This document shows, piece after piece, positions 1 to 24,741 of a DNA stretch of 64,000 bases (the stretch's first letter is position 1; each line of letters starts with the position of its first letter). Under the pieces are notes generated by a model. It had not been told where the DNA came from and did no database searches. It worked only from the letters and a program-made list of their open reading frames with translations. This DNA is from Candidatus Omnitrophota bacterium (lineage in GTDB: Bacteria > Omnitrophota > Gorgyraeia > Gygaellales > Profunditerraquicolaceae), in assembly GCA_028715415.1 (NCBI GenBank), contig JAQURX010000010.1:3668-67667 (forward strand). Direction: 5' to 3'. The position numbers and the translations under genes are program-made.

Positions 1-1238
1 TCAATAAAAAATATTTTACCCGGCTCTAACCTTCCAGAAACTTTAATGTTGGCAGGGTCAATATCTAAAACCCCGACTTCAGAAGCCATAACCACAAAAT
101 CATCATTTGTAACAATGTAACGGGCGGGACGCAATCCGTTTCTATCAAGGATTGCACCGATATTTTTCCCGTCAGTAAAAGCAATCGCAGCCGGGCCATC
201 CCAAGGCTCAATAAAACAGGCATGATATTTATAAAAATCCCTCAGCTCCTTACTCATATGCAAATCGTGTTCCCATGCTACGGGAATAAGCATCATCATG
301 ACATGTTCGAGCGGCCTTCCCGACAAAACCAGTAGTTCAAAGAAATTGTCAATTGCCGCAGAATCACTTCCGCCTTCAACTATAACCGGCTTAAGCTTCT
401 CTATATCGGTCCCAAATAATTCACTTGAAAGCAGGCGTTCCCGGGCACTGACTCCATTTACATTTCCACGCAAAGTATTAATCTCACCGTTGTGTGCTAA
501 AAATCTAAAAGGCTGTGCCAAATTCCAAGTAGGAAAAGTGTTGGTTGAATAACGCGAATGCACAAGGCACATGGCACTTTTCATAGATTCATCTTTAAGA
601 TCAAGAAAGAAATTATCAATCTGCCCGGGCATAAGCAAACCTTTGTAGGATAACGTACGGCAGGAAATATTAGTAATGTAAAAAGATTTCTTTTGCTTTA
701 ATTCAGATTCAAAAATTATCCTCTCAACCTGTTTTCTGATAACATAAAGCTTCCTTTCAAAATCTAATTCATCTTTTATGCTTTCATTCTTACCGATAAA
801 GATATGTTCAAAAACCGGCTGGGTGCTTTTTGCCCCCTCTCCGATATCAGAATCGTTTATCGGCAGAGTACGCCAACCCAGTAATATTTGATTCTGTTCT
901 TCAATAACATTCTCAAATGTTTCTTTACAGAATTTACGTTCCTCATCATCCTGAGGCAGGAATATTAACCCGCTGCCATAAGAAGCTAAATCCGGCAAAT
1001 CAATATTATTCTCCTGCGCTACTTTCTTAAAAAAGCCGTGAGGAATCTGGATTAAAATCCCTGCCCCGTCTCCGGTCTTTGGGTCAGAACCAACAGCCCC
1101 GCGATGCGATAAACGGTGTAAAACCTCAACGCCCTGTTTTATGATGGCGTTGGATTTATCTCCTTTAATATTGCAAACAAACCCCACTCCGCAAGAATCA
1201 TGTTCAAAGATAGGGTCATACAAACCTTGAGCTTTCAT
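1..1238 (-). CDS. gltB: Glutamate synthase large subunit, N-terminal glutamine amidotransferase domain (partial; gene runs off the window start)
   Basis: Minus-strand translation from ATG (complement of 1236-1238) gives MKAQGLYDPIFEHDSCGVGFVCNIKGDKSNA...GDGAGILIQIPHGFF, the conserved GltB N-terminus with the catalytic Cys. No stop before coordinate 1, so it is absent from the ORF track. Confidence 0.75.
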   Translation of the reverse strand, partial: MKAQGLYDPIFEHDSCGVGFVCNIKGDKSNAIIKQGVEVLHRLSHRGAVGSDPKTGDGAGILIQIPHGFFKKVAQENNIDLPDLASYGSGLIFLPQDDEERKFCKETFENVIEEQNQILLGWRTLPINDSDIGEGAKSTQPVFEHIFIGKNESIKDELDFERKLYVIRKQVERIIFESELKQKKSFYITNISCRTLSYKGLLMPGQIDNFFLDLKDESMKSAMCLVHSRYSTNTFPTWNLAQPFRFLAHNGEINTLRGNVNGVSARERLLSSELFGTDIEKLKPVIVEGGSDSAAIDNFFELLVLSGRPLEHVMMMLIPVAWEHDLHMSKELRDFYKYHACFIEPWDGPAAIAFTDGKNIGAILDRNGLRPARYIVTNDDFVVMASEVGVLDIDPANIKVSGRLEPGKIFFI

Positions 1239-8171: not shown

Positions 8172-9578
8172 CTACTCAATTTCAATTTTCCTAAAGCCAG
8201 TTGAATCAAACGGCAAGTCTCCTCCGTAAATCTTAATCGCGCTTAAAAGAAAATCGGGATCTCCTAAAATTTTAAGGGGAATCTTCAAAGTCAGCTCTTT
8301 TGGCTTTAATTTCAATGATACGCTTTTTGAATTTATCCTTCTTCTTTTATCAAGCATGATGAGTTTTTCTCCTTTGATATGCGCTTCAATCTTTGGCATT
8401 TTTGCAAAAGGAGTTTTTGAATTATAACCAAACAAATATAGCAATAAATTAAACGAGCGGTTATTTTTTCCTAATTTCTCAACCCTGATCAGGAAATTCC
8501 CTTCGCTGACTGCGTAACTTACTTTTTCTCTCTCTCCGATATTAACCTTTTTTGCGGTTTCCATTTCATTAGATTCCGCGAACATCTCAATAAAATCAGA
8601 AAAAAACGGCTCTTTTATTTTTGATACAACGTCTCTCTTAAAATGTATTACAGGATAGTCGCCGAACAACTCGTTCTTGCGGACAAATGAAAACAAATAG
8701 AAGGCGCTTGACATTGTCTGGCTTTTGTAACATTTCATTGCCTGAATTTTTTTCTTCACTTGCCCGGGGGTCAAATCATCCCTAAGCCAATGAATCTGGC
8801 CATCCATAAACTTTTTCGGAGGCTCTAAATCTAAATCTGGATGTAAATGGCGCGGAAGAGGCCACCCAGAACAATGTACAAGATAAGGATAAACTTCCGG
8901 ATCAAAACCCTCTTTACCCAAGCCTCGAAGAACTATCTGTAGATACAAATAAAGGGATTTGTGATCTACATTCACATCAGCCGGATGCGAGACAAAAATC
9001 TTAGTTGGTTTATAATCAACGATTATCCTTCTTAAATCACTTAAAATATTCTGCCCTACATAAGGAGCCTTATAAGAAACGCTATCTTTGTAAGGCACTT
9101 CTGAGATACGGCACAGGACGCACCAGAAAGGCTTCTGTGGATCCCAATATTGATTTAAAATCGCGAATGTCCCAAAATCAGGATAGCCGAGGAAATAAAG
9201 GTCTTCCTTTTCTACCCCTAATATATTCATCGCCTTTATTGCTTCCTGCCTACGCACCTCTCCCATATAGATGAATGCCTTTCTACGGAAGACTAACCTT
9301 TTTTCATAAATAATAAAGGCGGCTTCATTATGATCGCCGTTAGTCAAATAAGCGATTTTAACCTGAGCACCCTGCGCTTTAGCCTGCTGGATTACTCCGC
9401 CGCAACCGATAGTTTCATCATCAGGATGAGGCGCTAAAATAAGGACACGATCCGTCTTATCAAATGGGCCTAATTCATGGAGCACCTGATTCTGCGGCTG
9501 AGGGATCAATTCAGGATAGCATTGATCTAGGCCTAAGATAATAAACAATAGGAGCATAAAGATTGATTTCTTAATCAT
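8172..9578 (-). CDS. Secreted PIG-L/LmbE-family deacetylase domain protein with about 220-aa C-terminal extension
   Basis: Signal peptide, then LILAPHPDDETIGCGGV...TNGDHN (PIG-L zinc-site motif HPDDE). Confidence 0.6.
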   Translation of the reverse strand: MIKKSIFMLLLFIILGLDQCYPELIPQPQNQVLHELGPFDKTDRVLILAPHPDDETIGCGGVIQQAKAQGAQVKIAYLTNGDHNEAAFIIYEKRLVFRRKAFIYMGEVRRQEAIKAMNILGVEKEDLYFLGYPDFGTFAILNQYWDPQKPFWCVLCRISEVPYKDSVSYKAPYVGQNILSDLRRIIVDYKPTKIFVSHPADVNVDHKSLYLYLQIVLRGLGKEGFDPEVYPYLVHCSGWPLPRHLHPDLDLEPPKKFMDGQIHWLRDDLTPGQVKKKIQAMKCYKSQTMSSAFYLFSFVRKNELFGDYPVIHFKRDVVSKIKEPFFSDFIEMFAESNEMETAKKVNIGEREKVSYAVSEGNFLIRVEKLGKNNRSFNLLLYLFGYNSKTPFAKMPKIEAHIKGEKLIMLDKRRRINSKSVSLKLKPKELTLKIPLKILGDPDFLLSAIKIYGGDLPFDSTGFRKIEIE

Positions 9579-9632
9579 AGTTGGTTAATTGTATCATACA
9601 TGTAAAATCAACTCAATATCTAATCTTAATGA

Positions 9633-9839
9633 GGCCACAACTTATGGAACGAGCGAAGCGAAGTGAACATAAGTTGTCTGGCCGAATTAATACCGCCGAG
9701 TGTGCAAAAATTATGGAACAGAATTTTTGCACTTCTTACGAGGCGGTATAAACTATATTGTAAGCCAGTGGGTCCTGCCGCCGAGCCACCCCGCCGTGCT
9801 CCCCCACTGCGCTTAGGCGGGGTGCCCCGTCTCGGCGTC
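9633..9839. ncRNA. GC-rich three-hairpin structured element (candidate ncRNA; identity and strand unknown)
   Basis: Hairpin A 9633-9683 (14-bp stem GGCCACAACTTATG/CATAAGTTGTctGGCC), hairpin B 9691-9748 (TACCGCC..GGCGGTA with inner GTGCAAAAATT/AATTTTTGCAC), hairpin C 9782-9839 (GCCGAG-CCACCCCGCC...GGCGGGGTG-CTCGGC). GC content far above the flanking DNA. Loops A and B share TTATGGAAC. Confidence 0.4.
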
Positions 9840-9871
9840 ACCCACTAAGCATATTTAATCATTAAAATCAT

Positions 9872-9899
9872 TTGAAATATCATTTAAATACTATATAAT
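9872..9899 (+). promoter_or_regulatory. Sigma70-like promoter TTGAAA-16 nt-TATAAT for the CDF transporter gene
   Basis: TTGAAA 9872-9877, TATAAT 9894-9899, ATG at 9907; very short leader without SD. Confidence 0.45.
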
Positions 9900-9906
9900 T
9901 ACTAAC

Positions 9907-10785
9907 ATGAACCCTCAAATTAACCTTCATTACGCATCAATCAGGCGAGTCCTTGTTTTTGTTTTGATTCTTAACTGGGCTGTCGCTTTTGCTAAGATTA
10001 TCTACGGCTATCTTACTTCCTGCGTTAGCATGACTGCAGACGGCTTCCATTCATTATCAGACGGAGCTTCTAATATCATCGGGATTATCGGTATTCAATT
10101 CGCCTGCCAGCCGCAAGATAAAGACCATCCCTACGGACATAAAAAATATGAAACTTTCTTTTCTTTGGGTATTTCCATGCTTTTATTCCTGCTTTCATTC
10201 AACCTGATAAAAGAAGGTATTGGCCGAATTAGCCATCCGGGGCTTCCAAGAATAGATGCATTGAGTTTCTCCGTCATGGTTCTTACCATGATAGTTAATA
10301 TCTGGGTTATGTGTTATGAAAAAAATAAAGGCAAAGAGTTACGCAGCGATATACTTATTTCGGATGCCTTACACACCAAAGCTGATATCTTCACTTCTTG
10401 CTCGGTAATCATAGCATTAATTGCAATTAAAATAGGCTATCCCATCCTTGACCCGATTATCACAATCCTAATTGCCTTATTTATTGCTTTTTCAGGATTT
10501 GAAATTGTTAAAGAGAGCTCCCGCGTTCTTTGCGATACAGCTGCAATTCTGGATGTAAAAAAGATTGAGGATATTGTTTTAAAGATAGACGGAGTTAAAG
10601 CTTGCCATAAAATACGTTCACGTGGAAGAGCGGATGATATTCACGTAGATTTACATGCACAGGTAAACCCTTCTATGCAGATGTCTGAATCACATAGGAT
10701 AAGTTTTGAAATTGAAGGCGCTATTAAGAAGGAAATCCCGGAAATTACCGATGTAGTTGTGCATATGGAACCCCTCAAAGGCTAA
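9907..10785 (+). CDS. Cation diffusion facilitator (CDF) family metal efflux transporter
   Basis: 292 aa, six TM helices with HSLSDG motif in TM2 and H/D-rich loops, C-terminal cytoplasmic domain. Confidence 0.85.
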   Translation: MNPQINLHYASIRRVLVFVLILNWAVAFAKIIYGYLTSCVSMTADGFHSLSDGASNIIGIIGIQFACQPQDKDHPYGHKKYETFFSLGISMLLFLLSFNLIKEGIGRISHPGLPRIDALSFSVMVLTMIVNIWVMCYEKNKGKELRSDILISDALHTKADIFTSCSVIIALIAIKIGYPILDPIITILIALFIAFSGFEIVKESSRVLCDTAAILDVKKIEDIVLKIDGVKACHKIRSRGRADDIHVDLHAQVNPSMQMSESHRISFEIEGAIKKEIPEITDVVVHMEPLKG

Positions 10786-21764: not shown

Positions 21765-23000
21765 TTATTTGCCAATTACTTTCTTTCTTCTTAACACGTG
21801 ATGATAGGCAACAGCAAACCTGTGCGCTTCATCTCTTACACGTCTTATTAAATTTAACGCAGGCGTATCTGACTTTAATTTAATAGGAAAAACCTTGTAT
21901 CTAGTATATATATTTTCCCTGTCTTTAGCAATACTCATTAGAGGTATATTTAACCTCAAATTACTTAACTGAGAATCGGCTACGGCAAGATGTGCCTTGC
22001 CTCCATCTATAAGGATTAAATCCGGAAGAGGTAATTTCTCCTGAATGAGGCGTGAATAACGCCTATATACAATCTCTTTAATCATTCCGTAATCGTCAAC
22101 CCCTTTTACCGTCTTAATGCGAAACCTTCGGTAATTGCTTTTATCGGGAGTGCCTTTATAAAAACTAACCATCGACCCACATGCCTCTTTACCTGAAATA
22201 TTTGAAATATCAAAAGCCTCTATTCTCTCAGGAGCTGTTTCTAATTTCAGCAGGTTTTTTAAATCATCCAATTCAAACTGGCGGGAATTTCCTGCCTGAA
22301 TTGATCCTAACGAACTTAATGCGTTTATCTGGTCGCGCAATTGGGCTGCCTCTTCATATTTATGCTCTTTAGAACAAATATTCATCTGCCTTGAGAGCTT
22401 CTTAACCAATTCCTCTGCCCGGCCTTCGAGGATCAAACGGATATTATTAACGGTCTTGGCATAATCACTTTTGCTAATTTTTCCGATGCAAGGCGCAGGA
22501 GACAAACCGATCCTGTAATAAATACAAGCTCTCTTCGGTAATTTTCTGCAGGTTCGATAAGGAAAACATTTTCTTAGAATTTCTAACGCTGCTTTTAATA
22601 ATGCAGCACCCGTATAAGGCCCTAGGTAAATTGCACCGTCATTCTCTTTTTTTCTTGTGATATAAATTGCGGGGAATTCTTCATTTGTAATCTTAACCAT
22701 GGGGAAACTTTTATCATCGCGCAGCAAAACATTGTATTTAGGTTTAAACTGATGCACGAGGCTTGCCTCAAGCAATAAAGCCAAGCTTTCCGTTGGTGTC
22801 AGCCTATATTCGATGTCTGCGACATTTGACATGAGGGCTACTGTCTTTGAAGAAAGGTCTCGCCCCAAATAATTGCTTACTCTTTTTCTTAATGAATTGG
22901 CTTTACCGATATAAATAATCTTTCCGGAGCTATCTTTCATAAGATATACCCCCGGCGCATCCGGCAAACCAGCTATTTTTTGTTTAAGAGTCATACTCAT
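21765..23000 (-). CDS. uvrC: Excinuclease ABC subunit C homologue lacking the C-terminal (HhH)2 domain
   Basis: GIY-YIG N-terminus (GVYLMKDSSGKIIYIGKANSLRKR), UvrC RNaseH-like endonuclease region (LILIDGGKAHL...RDEAHRFA); 411 aa versus about 600 aa for canonical UvrC. Confidence 0.7.
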   Translation of the reverse strand: MSMTLKQKIAGLPDAPGVYLMKDSSGKIIYIGKANSLRKRVSNYLGRDLSSKTVALMSNVADIEYRLTPTESLALLLEASLVHQFKPKYNVLLRDDKSFPMVKITNEEFPAIYITRKKENDGAIYLGPYTGAALLKAALEILRKCFPYRTCRKLPKRACIYYRIGLSPAPCIGKISKSDYAKTVNNIRLILEGRAEELVKKLSRQMNICSKEHKYEEAAQLRDQINALSSLGSIQAGNSRQFELDDLKNLLKLETAPERIEAFDISNISGKEACGSMVSFYKGTPDKSNYRRFRIKTVKGVDDYGMIKEIVYRRYSRLIQEKLPLPDLILIDGGKAHLAVADSQLSNLRLNIPLMSIAKDRENIYTRYKVFPIKLKSDTPALNLIRRVRDEAHRFAVAYHHVLRRKKVIGK

Positions 23001-23037
23001 CTTATTACGGTTTCGCGTCTGTCTTGTCTTTTGTTTT

Positions 23038-23156
23038 CTCGGGGACGCTTATTTTGCCCCTGCGAGGCAAAATTTCGCTCCCCTGCGGTGCCTCGCTCTG
23101 CCTACATTCTATTTAGCGGGGCAACCGTGCCCGCTCGGCATCCTCGGAGGCCCCGA
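23038..23156. other. GC-rich structured intergenic element with mutually exclusive hairpins (candidate regulatory RNA/ncRNA)
   Basis: H1 ATTTTGCC-cctgcga-GGCAAAAT (23051-23073) competes with H2 GCGAGGC...GCCTCGC (23062-23096); H3 AGCGGGGcaaccgtGCCCGCT (23115-23135); outer CTCGGGG/CCCCGAt closure. GC content far above the flanks. Confidence 0.35.
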
Positions 23157-23208
23157 TAAAACAAAAGCCAAACCATCCGCTGAAAACAATTACTTATAAC
23201 TTTATAAT

Positions 23209-24741
23209 TTAATGAAGTGCCCTTAAATCATCTTCTACAGTCTTAGCTTTAAGAATAAATCCACTCTGAAGATACAGCATCTTTGATTTTTTATATGCTT
23301 CTTTTGCCGAAACAATATCACCAGTTATTTTATCAAGAGTTCCAATAATACGATAAATACCCGGATCTTCAGGATTAATCTCTGTAGCTTTTTTTAAATA
23401 AGACGTAGATTTCTCAAAATCAGTATCTGCATATACTAAGCTTAAAGAAAGAAGAGCATTTATATAATCGGGATTCAACTGTAGTGCTTTCTCAAAATAT
23501 TCTATTCCTTGCTGCTTTTTTCCTATATTTACAAGGCCATTGCCCAGCATTACCATTAAATCAACAGCATTTGGCATTAAATCTAATGATTTTTTTAAGT
23601 AAGTTATGCCTTTTTCTGAATCATCTAAACGCAAATACAAATCTCCAAGATTAGCATAAACGGCTGGATCGGTGGGATTAATTTGCATTGCCTTTTCATA
23701 ATAATCCTTAGCCTGTAAAAGTTGATCCAAATATACAGATAATAAGCCAAGAGTGTTATAGACATCTACATTTTTAGGGTTTATTTCAATAACTTTCTTG
23801 AGAAGCTCTACCGACTGTTTAAAATCATCTCGAAACATACATCTTTCTGCCTCTGAATAATAATAATCTGCCCGGCTTACAGTCTCTACAAATTGTTGGA
23901 TACTCATTTTGGAAGTAGTGGTAATCAAAGGCTTAATTGTATTAATCGCAAGAGCAAAATTTAAGTTTTGCCCCCCCTGCATCAAAAAAGTTACAATTCC
24001 TAGAACTTCACCTTTAGAATTTATAAGCGGCCCACCACTATTCCCCGGAGAAATAGGTGCACTAAACTGTAAATATTTTAATTTGTTATATTCTCGCACT
24101 CCCGAAAGTAATCCATCTGAAAAAGTATATTCCAAACCCAAAGGATTTCCGATTACATATATTTTATCCCCTATGTACGCAGAATCTGAATTGCCCAAAA
24201 GAATAGTGGGTAAATCATCTGCTTCTATCTTAAATATACAAATATCAAATCTGGCATCATAATATATTATTCCAGTGACAGGGTAGCTTTTACCATTTTT
24301 AAATTTAACATTTATCTCTTTGGATAACTTAGTCACATGAAAATTAGTTACAACTATACCTTTGGGATCTACTACAAAACCACTTCCTAGGTATTCTTCT
24401 CCAGCTAATGTTTTATTAGTAATGTAGACAACGGCCGGGCTTATGCTTTCGAAGATATCACGAGGGGAATTTTGGGATAGGGATTCTTTGGCTTTAGAAA
24501 TAGAGTTCCCATCAATACTCTTAATATCATTTAGAAAATAGGGCACCTGCACTCCATAGAAATCCACCTTTATATATTTATCTGTTCTTTCAACTATTTT
24601 TCCTTCTACTGTCTTTCCTGATTTAAGGACGATGGTTTCAGCAAAAACGAGGCTTGAAAAACATAAGCTAAATAGTAATATTAAGCTTAACAATCTTCCA
24701 TTCTTCATCTTCCTCTCCTTAATTAACAATAAAACCTTCAA
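23209..24741 (-). CDS. Secreted trypsin-like serine protease (S1) fused to C-terminal TPR repeats
   Basis: Catalytic triad context GSGFVVDPKGIVVTNFHV / DICIFKI / GNSGGPLINSKGEVLGI; about 200-aa TPR region at the C-terminus; signal peptide at the second Met. Confidence 0.75.
   Translation of the reverse strand: MKVLLLIKERKMKNGRLLSLILLFSLCFSSLVFAETIVLKSGKTVEGKIVERTDKYIKVDFYGVQVPYFLNDIKSIDGNSISKAKESLSQNSPRDIFESISPAVVYITNKTLAGEEYLGSGFVVDPKGIVVTNFHVTKLSKEINVKFKNGKSYPVTGIIYYDARFDICIFKIEADDLPTILLGNSDSAYIGDKIYVIGNPLGLEYTFSDGLLSGVREYNKLKYLQFSAPISPGNSGGPLINSKGEVLGIVTFLMQGGQNLNFALAINTIKPLITTTSKMSIQQFVETVSRADYYYSEAERCMFRDDFKQSVELLKKVIEINPKNVDVYNTLGLLSVYLDQLLQAKDYYEKAMQINPTDPAVYANLGDLYLRLDDSEKGITYLKKSLDLMPNAVDLMVMLGNGLVNIGKKQQGIEYFEKALQLNPDYINALLSLSLVYADTDFEKSTSYLKKATEINPEDPGIYRIIGTLDKITGDIVSAKEAYKKSKMLYLQSGFILKAKTVEDDLRALH

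Follow-up and report, generated by a model that had tools for sequence, protein, structure and literature searches.

The window analysed here is a 64-kb stretch of genomic DNA from a Candidatus Omnitrophota bacterium. The spacer between its divergent genes for a PIG-L-family deacetylase and a cation-diffusion-facilitator (CDF) protein contains an island of three consecutive hairpins, A, B and C (9625–9850; Table 1). Both gene annotations were confirmed against Pfam, and an exact-protein look-up of the two gene products returned no record. The plus strand of the island has a predicted minimum free energy of −97 kcal/mol, compared with −65.2 ± 4.4 kcal/mol for dinucleotide shuffles (z −7.3), and none of 200 shuffles equalled it. 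The minus strand reaches z −5.4, and folding with DNA parameters gives z −7.9. Folded alone, hairpin A (9633–9683) has z −4.8, hairpin B −6.1 and hairpin C −4.3. We report that A and B are a copy of a previously undescribed family of interspersed, hairpin-forming DNA repeats that is widespread in Omnitrophota genomes, and that the block from 9626 to about 9850–9865 is most probably an insertion of such a modular repeat, best explained as mobile DNA.

A preliminary description of this DNA, made from its letters alone, had reported three hairpins in a GC-rich island and proposed a novel non-coding RNA (ncRNA). The hairpins are real, each being significant singly as well as in combination. High GC content belongs to hairpin C only, where it is 66% over 100 nt and reaches 78% over 80 nt; for A and B it is about 40–44%, against 38.5% for the whole window. 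The stem of C, put at about 16 bp, is in fact an interrupted stem of about 27 pairs. The identical sequence noted on the 5′ side of the A and B loops is TTATGGAAC, found at 9642 and 9711 with one further occurrence in the 64 kb (expected, 0.71). A match to the conserved cores of tmRNA, RNase P, SRP or 6S RNA had been denied, and a scan of the locus with Rfam 15 gave nothing relevant either at the gathering threshold or at E ≤ 10. The Rfam scan of the whole 64-kb window found two tRNAs only; ARAGORN likewise gave two tRNAs only, both away from the island. Three mechanical open reading frames (ORFs) of 56–71 aa run through the hairpins (9581–9751, plus strand; 9626–9841, minus strand; 9663–9848, plus strand). 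They are by-products of the palindromes, without support as genes.

Table 1. Features of the PIG-L/CDF spacer and of the repeat copy within it (window coordinates).
Feature	Position	Strand	Remarks
PIG-L-family deacetylase gene	8172–9578	−	annotation confirmed against Pfam
Promoter-like site of the PIG-L operon	9588–9616	−	TTGAGT-17-TACAAT, with TG; flanks the insertion on its left; outside the element
TTA flank	9626–9628	+	directly 5′ of the element; family consensus T-T-N-A ahead of ATGAG
Module A	9629–9683	+	terminal pentamer ATGAG, then hairpin
Linker CGAATTAAT	9683–9691	+	joins modules A and B; conserved across the family
Module B	9690–9749	+	fold z −6.1; 14 relatives at other loci
Hairpin C	9764–9850		orphan GC-rich interrupted hairpin, about 27 pairs; inside the inserted block, outside the A+B unit
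Possible degenerate right terminus, TCAT/TAA	9859–9865	+	inverted counterpart of TTA/ATGA at 9626–9632; uncertain
CDF promoter	9872–9899	+	TTGAAA-16-TATAAT, 7 nt, ATG at 9907; agrees with the consensus at 11 of 12 positions; flanks the insertion on its right; outside the element
CDF gene	9907–10785	+	annotation confirmed against Pfam

Comparison with syntenic relatives marks the island as an addition to a shorter spacer. The PIG-L/CDF spacer is 328 nt long in the window and 42–160 nt long in the relatives (L001, 103 nt; L003, 80; L008, 82; L016, 73; L017, 76; L034, 42; the L numbers are our labels for related loci). The relatives' spacers contain two conserved promoter-like blocks only. By reading of these empty-site sequences, one is TTGATT-17-TAAAAT about 9 nt before the PIG-L ATG, and the other is TTGAAA-16/17-TATAAT 6–9 nt before the CDF ATG, kept in L002, L003, L008, L013 and L016. 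In the window, about 220 nt of additional sequence, beginning with TTA/ATGAG at 9626, lie between the two blocks. Both promoters point outward from the element, which leaves the window copy outside the two predicted mRNAs. The conservation of the CDF promoter, 6–9 nt before the ATG, also upholds the earlier statement that the island lies upstream of that promoter and hence is no leader of the gene. A CDF leader or metal riboswitch is excluded, since the element precedes the conserved promoter, which stands only 7 nt before the ATG, and there is no NiCo or yybP-ykoY match. A scan of the locus detected neither a promoter nor a terminator of the element's own.

The same spacer has received other additions. 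L012 and L026 carry an A-type copy in the opposite orientation and L005 a decayed copy, and other, unrelated hairpin repeats (for example AGGGACGGTTCTCAA...TTGAGAACCGTCCCT) enlarge it at L015 (2450–2645), L022 (3730–4010), L019 (3760–4010), L027 (3660–4010) and L011 (3830–4010). The PIG-L/CDF spacer thus looks like a recurrent landing site, a hot spot for several repeat families. As a separate observation on this spacer, the −10 boxes of both divergent genes stand only 6–9 nt before the ATG, with no Shine-Dalgarno sequence, in L001, L002, L003, L008, L013 and L016, a spacing which suggests that in these Omnitrophota the mRNAs of both the CDF gene and the PIG-L operon are leaderless.

Modules A and B recur far beyond this spacer. 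A scan for CDF homologues yielded 43 loci, nearly all from Omnitrophota metagenome-assembled genomes (MAGs), with 56–72% protein identity. BLAST and nhmmer searches of these loci with the element found diverged A and B copies in a few of them, at differing places and on both strands. L026 holds two inverted copies that are 93% identical (655–870, plus strand; 3952–3780, minus strand), L012 holds copies on both strands (2078–2220, plus; 3943–3850, minus), L017 has a B-type hairpin at 2340–2490, and L042 has a diverged copy. A strict pattern derived from four copies (ATGAG-N6-ACTTA-NN-GAAC-N4-16-GTGA-N2-3-TAAG) matches at least 120 stretches in a metagenome collection; the metagenome matches listed, the genome loci and the window together give 126 distinct copies, which is a lower bound. 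With a module A profile we found 192 modules in 1.09 Mb of related loci, many of them as plus/minus pairs 150–250 nt apart that represent complete elements. Near-identical copies occur within one genome, with several per contig; contigs hold up to four modules, and there is about one further element per 30 kb. The module A of the window scores 52.6 bits against the family profile (nhmmer, E 1.8e-14) and is the sole match in the 64 kb. The copies occupy unrelated intergenic spacers between ORFs, on either strand. The family has no counterpart in Rfam 15, where seven loci with full elements also gave nothing relevant; it has no match in plasmid and phage collections, and none was found in the searchable literature.

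These results establish a multi-copy family with copies in both orientations, defined ends and orthologous sites that are polymorphic for presence or absence. The ncRNA proposal survives in part: the fold is real, it lies outside both transcription units, it has no Rfam family, and A and B are conserved. The idea of a single-locus ncRNA gene falls, as A and B recur at no fewer than 126 unrelated intergenic sites in both orientations and syntenic relatives are without the element.

The full-length element reads TTA/ATGAG-A-CGAATTAAT-variable hairpin-ATAAGTTCG-inverted A-like hairpin-CTCAC/TTA and is 150–230 nt long. Two hairpin repeats, inverted relative to each other, enclose a spacer of variable sequence that always folds. 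Its left boundary is abrupt at T(−4)T(−3)N A(−1)/ATGAG, with nothing conserved further upstream; over the 126 listed copies, position −3 is T in 115, position −1 is A in 123 and position −4 is T in 87. The right boundary is CTCAC/TTA. About 29 plus/minus pairs of module A lie 150–420 nt apart, and their internal hairpins belong to several mutually unrelated sequence types, of which the B type of the window is one. Past the internal hairpin, many copies continue through ATAAGTTCG into an inverted A-like hairpin that ends in CCTCAC/TTA. Two tandem elements in L063 have one TTA in common.

Module A starts with a fixed pentamer, ATGAG (GTGAG at the opposite end), followed by a covarying outer stem GSSC/GSSC, an invariant ACTTA/TAAGT core and an apex of the form G-GA-AC-(GNNA)-GU-GA-(A)-C. 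A longer apex, AC-GA-NN-(GNA or GNRA)-NN-GA-GU with covarying NN pairs, is found in some copies, that of the window included. In the window, the outer stem of module A is GGCC/GGCC, the inner stem is ACAACTTATG/CATAAGTTGT and the apex is GGAAC-GAGCGAAGCGAA-GTGAAC, with tandem G.A pairs, AC/GU pairs and a GCGAAGC mini-hairpin. The linker to module B contains CGAATT, nearly invariant in one family alignment, and GAATTA, invariant in another. Module B has an outer stem (AU)ACCGCC/GGCGGU(AU), tandem G.A pairs (CCGAG/CGAGG), a 5-nt bulge on the 3′ side, and an inner stem GTGCAAAAATT/AATTTTTGCAC closed by the loop ATGGAACAG.

Aligned with its closest relatives, the window copy is homologous from 9626 to about 9748, that is, over A plus B, and not past that point. 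The profile search found one A end only. The conserved unit is module A plus module B (9629–9749), and the window copy appears to be a one-ended form. Hairpin C, with z −4.3 on either strand and a slightly more stable minus strand (−52.3 vs −46.7 kcal/mol), has no relatives in the 1.09 Mb of related loci. It may be one of the family's free-sequence internal hairpins, followed by a degenerate right terminus TCAT/TAA; alternatively, it may have been inserted independently of the family. The candidate terminus in Table 1 is based on the right ends of family members, which have the form CTCA[C/T] and then T[T/A]A, and an inverted repeat between 9623–9632 and 9859–9868 is 90% complementary; a 7-nt match at 9859–9865 in AT-rich DNA could be due to chance.

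Several copies show further variation in their modules. In L105 (4680–4710) and L136 (3310–3330) an extra small hairpin, for example AGGCCGCAAGGCC, stands between the inner and outer stems of A and makes a three-way junction. The contigs L061 (1667–1813) and L091 (1394–1500) share their flanks, including a tRNA gene at the far side, and their module A, but they differ in the internal hairpin; the middle module has apparently been replaced or deleted at one locus. In L140 (898–1137) a sub-threshold FMN riboswitch match (E 2.5e-5; 37.5 bits, with a gathering threshold of 66.2) overlaps the beginning of an element at 1106, and the element may have landed beside or within a riboswitch. A second GC-rich island of the window (up to 69% GC; 23001–23208), between two minus-strand genes (21765–23000 and 23209–24741), has a closing stem CUUUUGUUUU/AAAACAAAAG, z of about −3.7 to −4.0 and no Rfam match. 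It shows no similarity to hairpin C. Relatives of this second island occur in L168 (3627–3710; 77% over 88 nt) and L167 (1424–1460), and it is probably another repeated or structured family.

The covariation analysis called for in the preliminary description was carried out, and hairpins A and B prove to be kept elsewhere with abundant compensatory changes. We aligned 95 sequences of module A and 13 of module B and used 500 shuffles for each. A standard pair is formed in 99% of the cells of A and 96% of those of B, and compensatory changes occur at 8 of 15 pairs in A and 16 of 22 in B. None of the 500 shuffles reached the observed covariation in either module, and in slid registers the paired cells drop to 14–42% (A) and 38–54% (B). 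Among the pair changes in module A, 230 are double-sided and 10 one-sided. G.U makes up 1.6% of the predicted pairs, and transition mismatches of the G.U type number 21 on the plus strand and 16 on the minus strand, with no strand asymmetry. Stems that are almost purely Watson–Crick and symmetric between the strands argue for constraint at the level of DNA. Such a pattern is apparently what one would expect if the palindrome were recognised as DNA, whether in double-stranded form or as a hairpin of one strand.

The position of the copies relative to genes, without linkage to any one gene family, fits an interspersed repeat; it also bears on a different explanation, in which the repeats would serve the host at the RNA level when co-transcribed, by stabilising mRNA or by keeping stop and start codons adjacent for translational coupling. 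No family among the 219 neighbouring ORFs has more than three members, and none of these ORFs encodes a transposase. They include housekeeping genes such as those for NusG, L11, L1, DnaK/DnaJ, GroES, MurC/MurG, GlmS and ArgC. Copies stand at TTA/TAA sites, adjoin coding sequences within 0–5 nt and often fit precisely into the gap from a TAA stop to the start codon that follows. Of the 113 left neighbours, 85 are encoded on the opposite strand, with a start codon usually 3–5 nt off, or 13–18 nt off with a Shine-Dalgarno sequence between; the other 28 are on the same strand and have their stop codon inside TTAATGAG. When a complete element separates two co-oriented genes, its 3′ TTA is the TAA stop of the upstream gene read on the other strand, and the start codon of the downstream gene comes directly after its 5′ TTA. 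At L076, L092, L113 and L153 the element fills the whole TAA–ATG gap, with 3 nt on both sides.

The nusG–rplK junction illustrates both states of such a site. It is empty in L074 (1395–1460), where ATA TAA AT ATG leaves 2 nt between the genes, and filled in L145 (1476–1870), where a composite element is found: ATC TAA [GTGAG...325 nt...CTCAT] TGA ATG. As a side observation, both L074 and L145 carry an element 3 nt upstream of the nusG start. At two other loci, inverted copies bracket a lipid-A acyltransferase/adenosine-kinase(/PIG-L) cluster at its 3′ and 5′ ends (L012, 2082–3936; L026, 661–3955).

The exact fill between TAA and ATG in operons, the sites ahead of essential genes without a Shine-Dalgarno sequence (nusG, rplK), an orientation bias between co-oriented genes of 48 antisense to 9 sense, hairpins upheld by compensatory changes, and GNRA-like tetraloops and tandem G.A pairs in the loops would all suit such a host function. 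We nevertheless regard it as unlikely. G.U pairs and one-sided changes are very rare for a selected RNA, and the majority (antisense) orientation puts the reverse complement into the mRNA, where the apex motifs are lost. The explanation is inapplicable to the window copy, which lies outside both predicted transcripts; under it, that copy would be either a by-product without function or an independent small RNA.

Less probable still, and the least likely of the explanations weighed here, is the original idea of a trans-acting small RNA gene, recast as a multi-copy family transcribed from the plus strand. The fold is strong, the plus strand of A is the more stable in 115 of the 126 listed copies, no Rfam family matches, and the 5′ end points away from a divergent gene for 85 of the 113 left neighbours. 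The stems, however, lack strand asymmetry. There is no conserved promoter, conservation beginning 4 nt before ATGAG, and there is no terminator at the locus. Copies stand within 0–5 nt of coding sequences, occur as inverted A copies and form tandem arrays with a common TTA, and the site is empty in most syntenic relatives and inverted in others.

Several other candidates were rejected. A CsrA-type sponge with GGA in the loops is out, as GGA is not conserved and the loops of relatives read GCGAAC or TCGAAG. A leader peptide starting in ATGAG is excluded as well: the stop varies from 8 to 40 codons, no Shine-Dalgarno sequence is present, the 'codons' covary with the 3′ arm, and the apparent conservation of M-R/S-P-x-L-x-E-R is a consequence of the conserved nucleotides. 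Against a phage origin, the five viral-contig matches come from one phage lineage, in which the pattern falls by chance on codons for the C-terminus of an ORF. An outward promoter is out because the TTGACA seen in some B hairpins does not stand at a constant distance from any −10 box. The integron attC site and the K-turn were dropped since their defining motifs or geometry do not fit.

We return to mobile DNA, the explanation that we favour as probable. In this scheme the elements would be non-autonomous mobile DNA, spreading now or in the past by means of a transposase that is encoded at another place in the genome and recognises their hairpin ends. We slightly favour a single-strand mechanism like that of repetitive extragenic palindromic (REP) sequences, their inverted doublets (REPINs) and REP-associated tyrosine transposases (RAYTs), or like that of insertion sequences (ISs) of the IS200/IS605 type, in which a hairpin and its fixed 5′ pentamer would be recognised on one strand beside a TTA target. 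We do so because the ends are hairpins preceded by a fixed pentamer, as in E. coli REP, because the plan of two inverted units around a free-sequence hairpin spacer is the definition of a REPIN, and because the flanks behave asymmetrically: GTGAG ends have TAA in 13 of 15 cases, and ATGAG ends have TTA in 91, TAA in 30 and TCA in 18. The strand-specific TTA flank and the biased orientation may be indirect hints of mobilisation as single-stranded DNA. We think it most likely that the window copy does nothing specific apart from placing about 220 bp between the two promoters.

Several observations weigh against this explanation. In about 1 Mb searched, no transposase or RAYT was found next to any copy, and with no such partner the case for mobility is drawn from the distribution of the copies. 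Nor did tblastn of the loci and the window with approximate query sequences for IS200, IS608 and YafM give a match, and the neighbouring ORFs contain no recurrent family of 120–200 aa. The target-site duplication is ambiguous, canonical copies having TTA on both sides and copies with a 5′ TAA or TCA usually having a 3′ TTA. The 48-to-9 orientation bias would not be predicted for a neutral repeat; it could result from a strand-specific TTA target falling on the sense-strand TAA of stop codons. GC skew follows gene orientation fully (intercept −0.014 ± 0.009), and the replication strand is not separable from gene orientation. Insertions common to diverged genomes, as upstream of nusG in L074 and L145, hint at retention. 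The 64-kb window holds a single copy, and hairpin C lies in the inserted block without relatives among the loci. The apex of module A (GGAAC-GNNA-GTGAAC, with tandem G.A) is strongly strand-specific and its plus strand folds better in most copies (115 of 126 listed), features also compatible with an RNA or with a ligand specific for single strands. In DNA, too, mini-hairpins with loops such as GCGAAGC and C-GNA-G have notable stability.

The asymmetry of the flanks and the form of the ends also bear on a variant of mobile DNA that differs only in the enzyme and in double-strand recognition and that fits nearly as well. In this variant, which we hold as a serious though secondary possibility, the elements would be cut-and-paste miniature inverted-repeat transposable elements (MITEs), deletion derivatives of an IS with a DDE transposase, having terminal inverted repeats of about 60 bp and duplicating a 3-bp TTA (TNA) target. 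Consistent with it, the ends are inverted copies over about 60 nt (TWA-RTGAG-GNCAYAASTTATG...CGAAYTWAT), most complete copies are flanked left and right by directly oriented TTA (18 of 28; in a second count, 12 of 29 exact), and the stems are purely Watson–Crick and strand-symmetric. Elements with ATGAG at both ends have palindromic flanks in none of nine cases, where about three are expected, and exact direct repeats in three of nine. Other features fit it poorly. The middle base of the two flanks agrees no more often than by chance, and TAA...TAA never occurs in asymmetric copies (read in the ATGAG orientation), where insertion in random orientation predicts 50%. Neither a parent IS nor an ORF-containing element bounded by A modules was found in the 1.09 Mb, a limited space, and the A modules that lie 1.8–3.3 kb apart in L012 and L026 enclose housekeeping genes. 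Ends formed by conserved hairpins after a fixed pentamer are generally typical of REP and IS200/IS605, not of DDE elements.

A more speculative thought, which we consider doubtful, is that module A, whose ACUUA/UAAGU core and tandem-G.A/GNRA-like apex are invariant in divergent Omnitrophota, is the recognition site of a dedicated protein, of the host or of the element, in a domesticated, phylum-wide system. If that were true, the fold would be tolerated or required between the stop and start codons of coupled essential genes, as at nusG–rplK, where it would bring the codons together and preserve termination–reinitiation.

For annotation, islands of this kind should be masked as repeats and not listed as candidates for ncRNAs or riboswitches, as the covariation of the family is so good that false reports of 'novel structured RNA' would otherwise run into the hundreds among Omnitrophota MAGs. 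Neither Rfam nor the searchable literature was found to describe this REPIN/MITE-like family, whose host phylum has been little studied, is mostly uncultured and has small, compact genomes. With its long hairpin ends and its precise insertion at TAA/ATG gene junctions, those of essential genes among them, the family could be of use as a strain-typing marker, as a probe for the transposase, and as a test of how compact operons tolerate inserts of 200 nt.

The closest parallels lie among known families of short interspersed repeats, although the elements have no sequence similarity to REP/BIME/REPIN (BIME, bacterial interspersed mosaic element), to IS200/IS605 palindromic elements, or to the Correia, BOX or ERIC (enterobacterial repetitive intergenic consensus) repeats. 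The REP of E. coli consists of a GTAG motif plus a palindrome, and the present family similarly has a fixed short 5′ motif (ATGAG/GTGAG) and then an imperfect palindrome. Like REP, BIME and REPIN sequences, its members are extragenic, multi-copy and found in both orientations, form higher-order modular arrays, and are conserved across a lineage with compensatory changes in the palindrome. REPINs consist of two inverted REPs and a spacer conserved only in its ability to form a hairpin (PMC3337134), and the complete elements described here share this plan of two inverted units around a sequence-variable hairpin spacer. They differ from REPINs in size (units of about 55–60 nt as opposed to 20–40; full elements of 150–230 nt as opposed to about 90–110), in their conserved apex (GGAAC-GNNA-GTGAAC), in their TTA bounds and in their Omnitrophota host. 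Unlike the REP–RAYT systems of Proteobacteria, with their Y1, IS200-like transposases, no RAYT flanked by copies was found in the roughly 1 Mb searched.

With the palindrome-associated elements (PATEs) derived from IS200/IS605, and with IS608-type ends, the family shares subterminal hairpins at each end, a short target of fixed sequence directly 5′ of the left end, a conserved 3′ terminus, flanks without covariation and a biased orientation. Its end hairpins, in contrast to those of IS200/IS605, are inverted copies and not the same hairpin on one strand, and no tnpA or tnpB lies nearby. Likeness to MITEs such as the Correia elements of Neisseria, to pneumococcal BOX and to enterobacterial ERIC extends to a size of 100–250 nt, terminal inverted repeats, a short A/T-rich flanking repeat, positions near gene starts and ends and strong predicted folds of the transcripts, and the modular construction is that of BOX. 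Unlike in those families, the terminal repeats are themselves conserved hairpins, the flanks are TTA and not TA, and no parent IS is known. The family appears to work like a REPIN or a MITE and is at most a candidate member of the REPIN–RAYT system proper.

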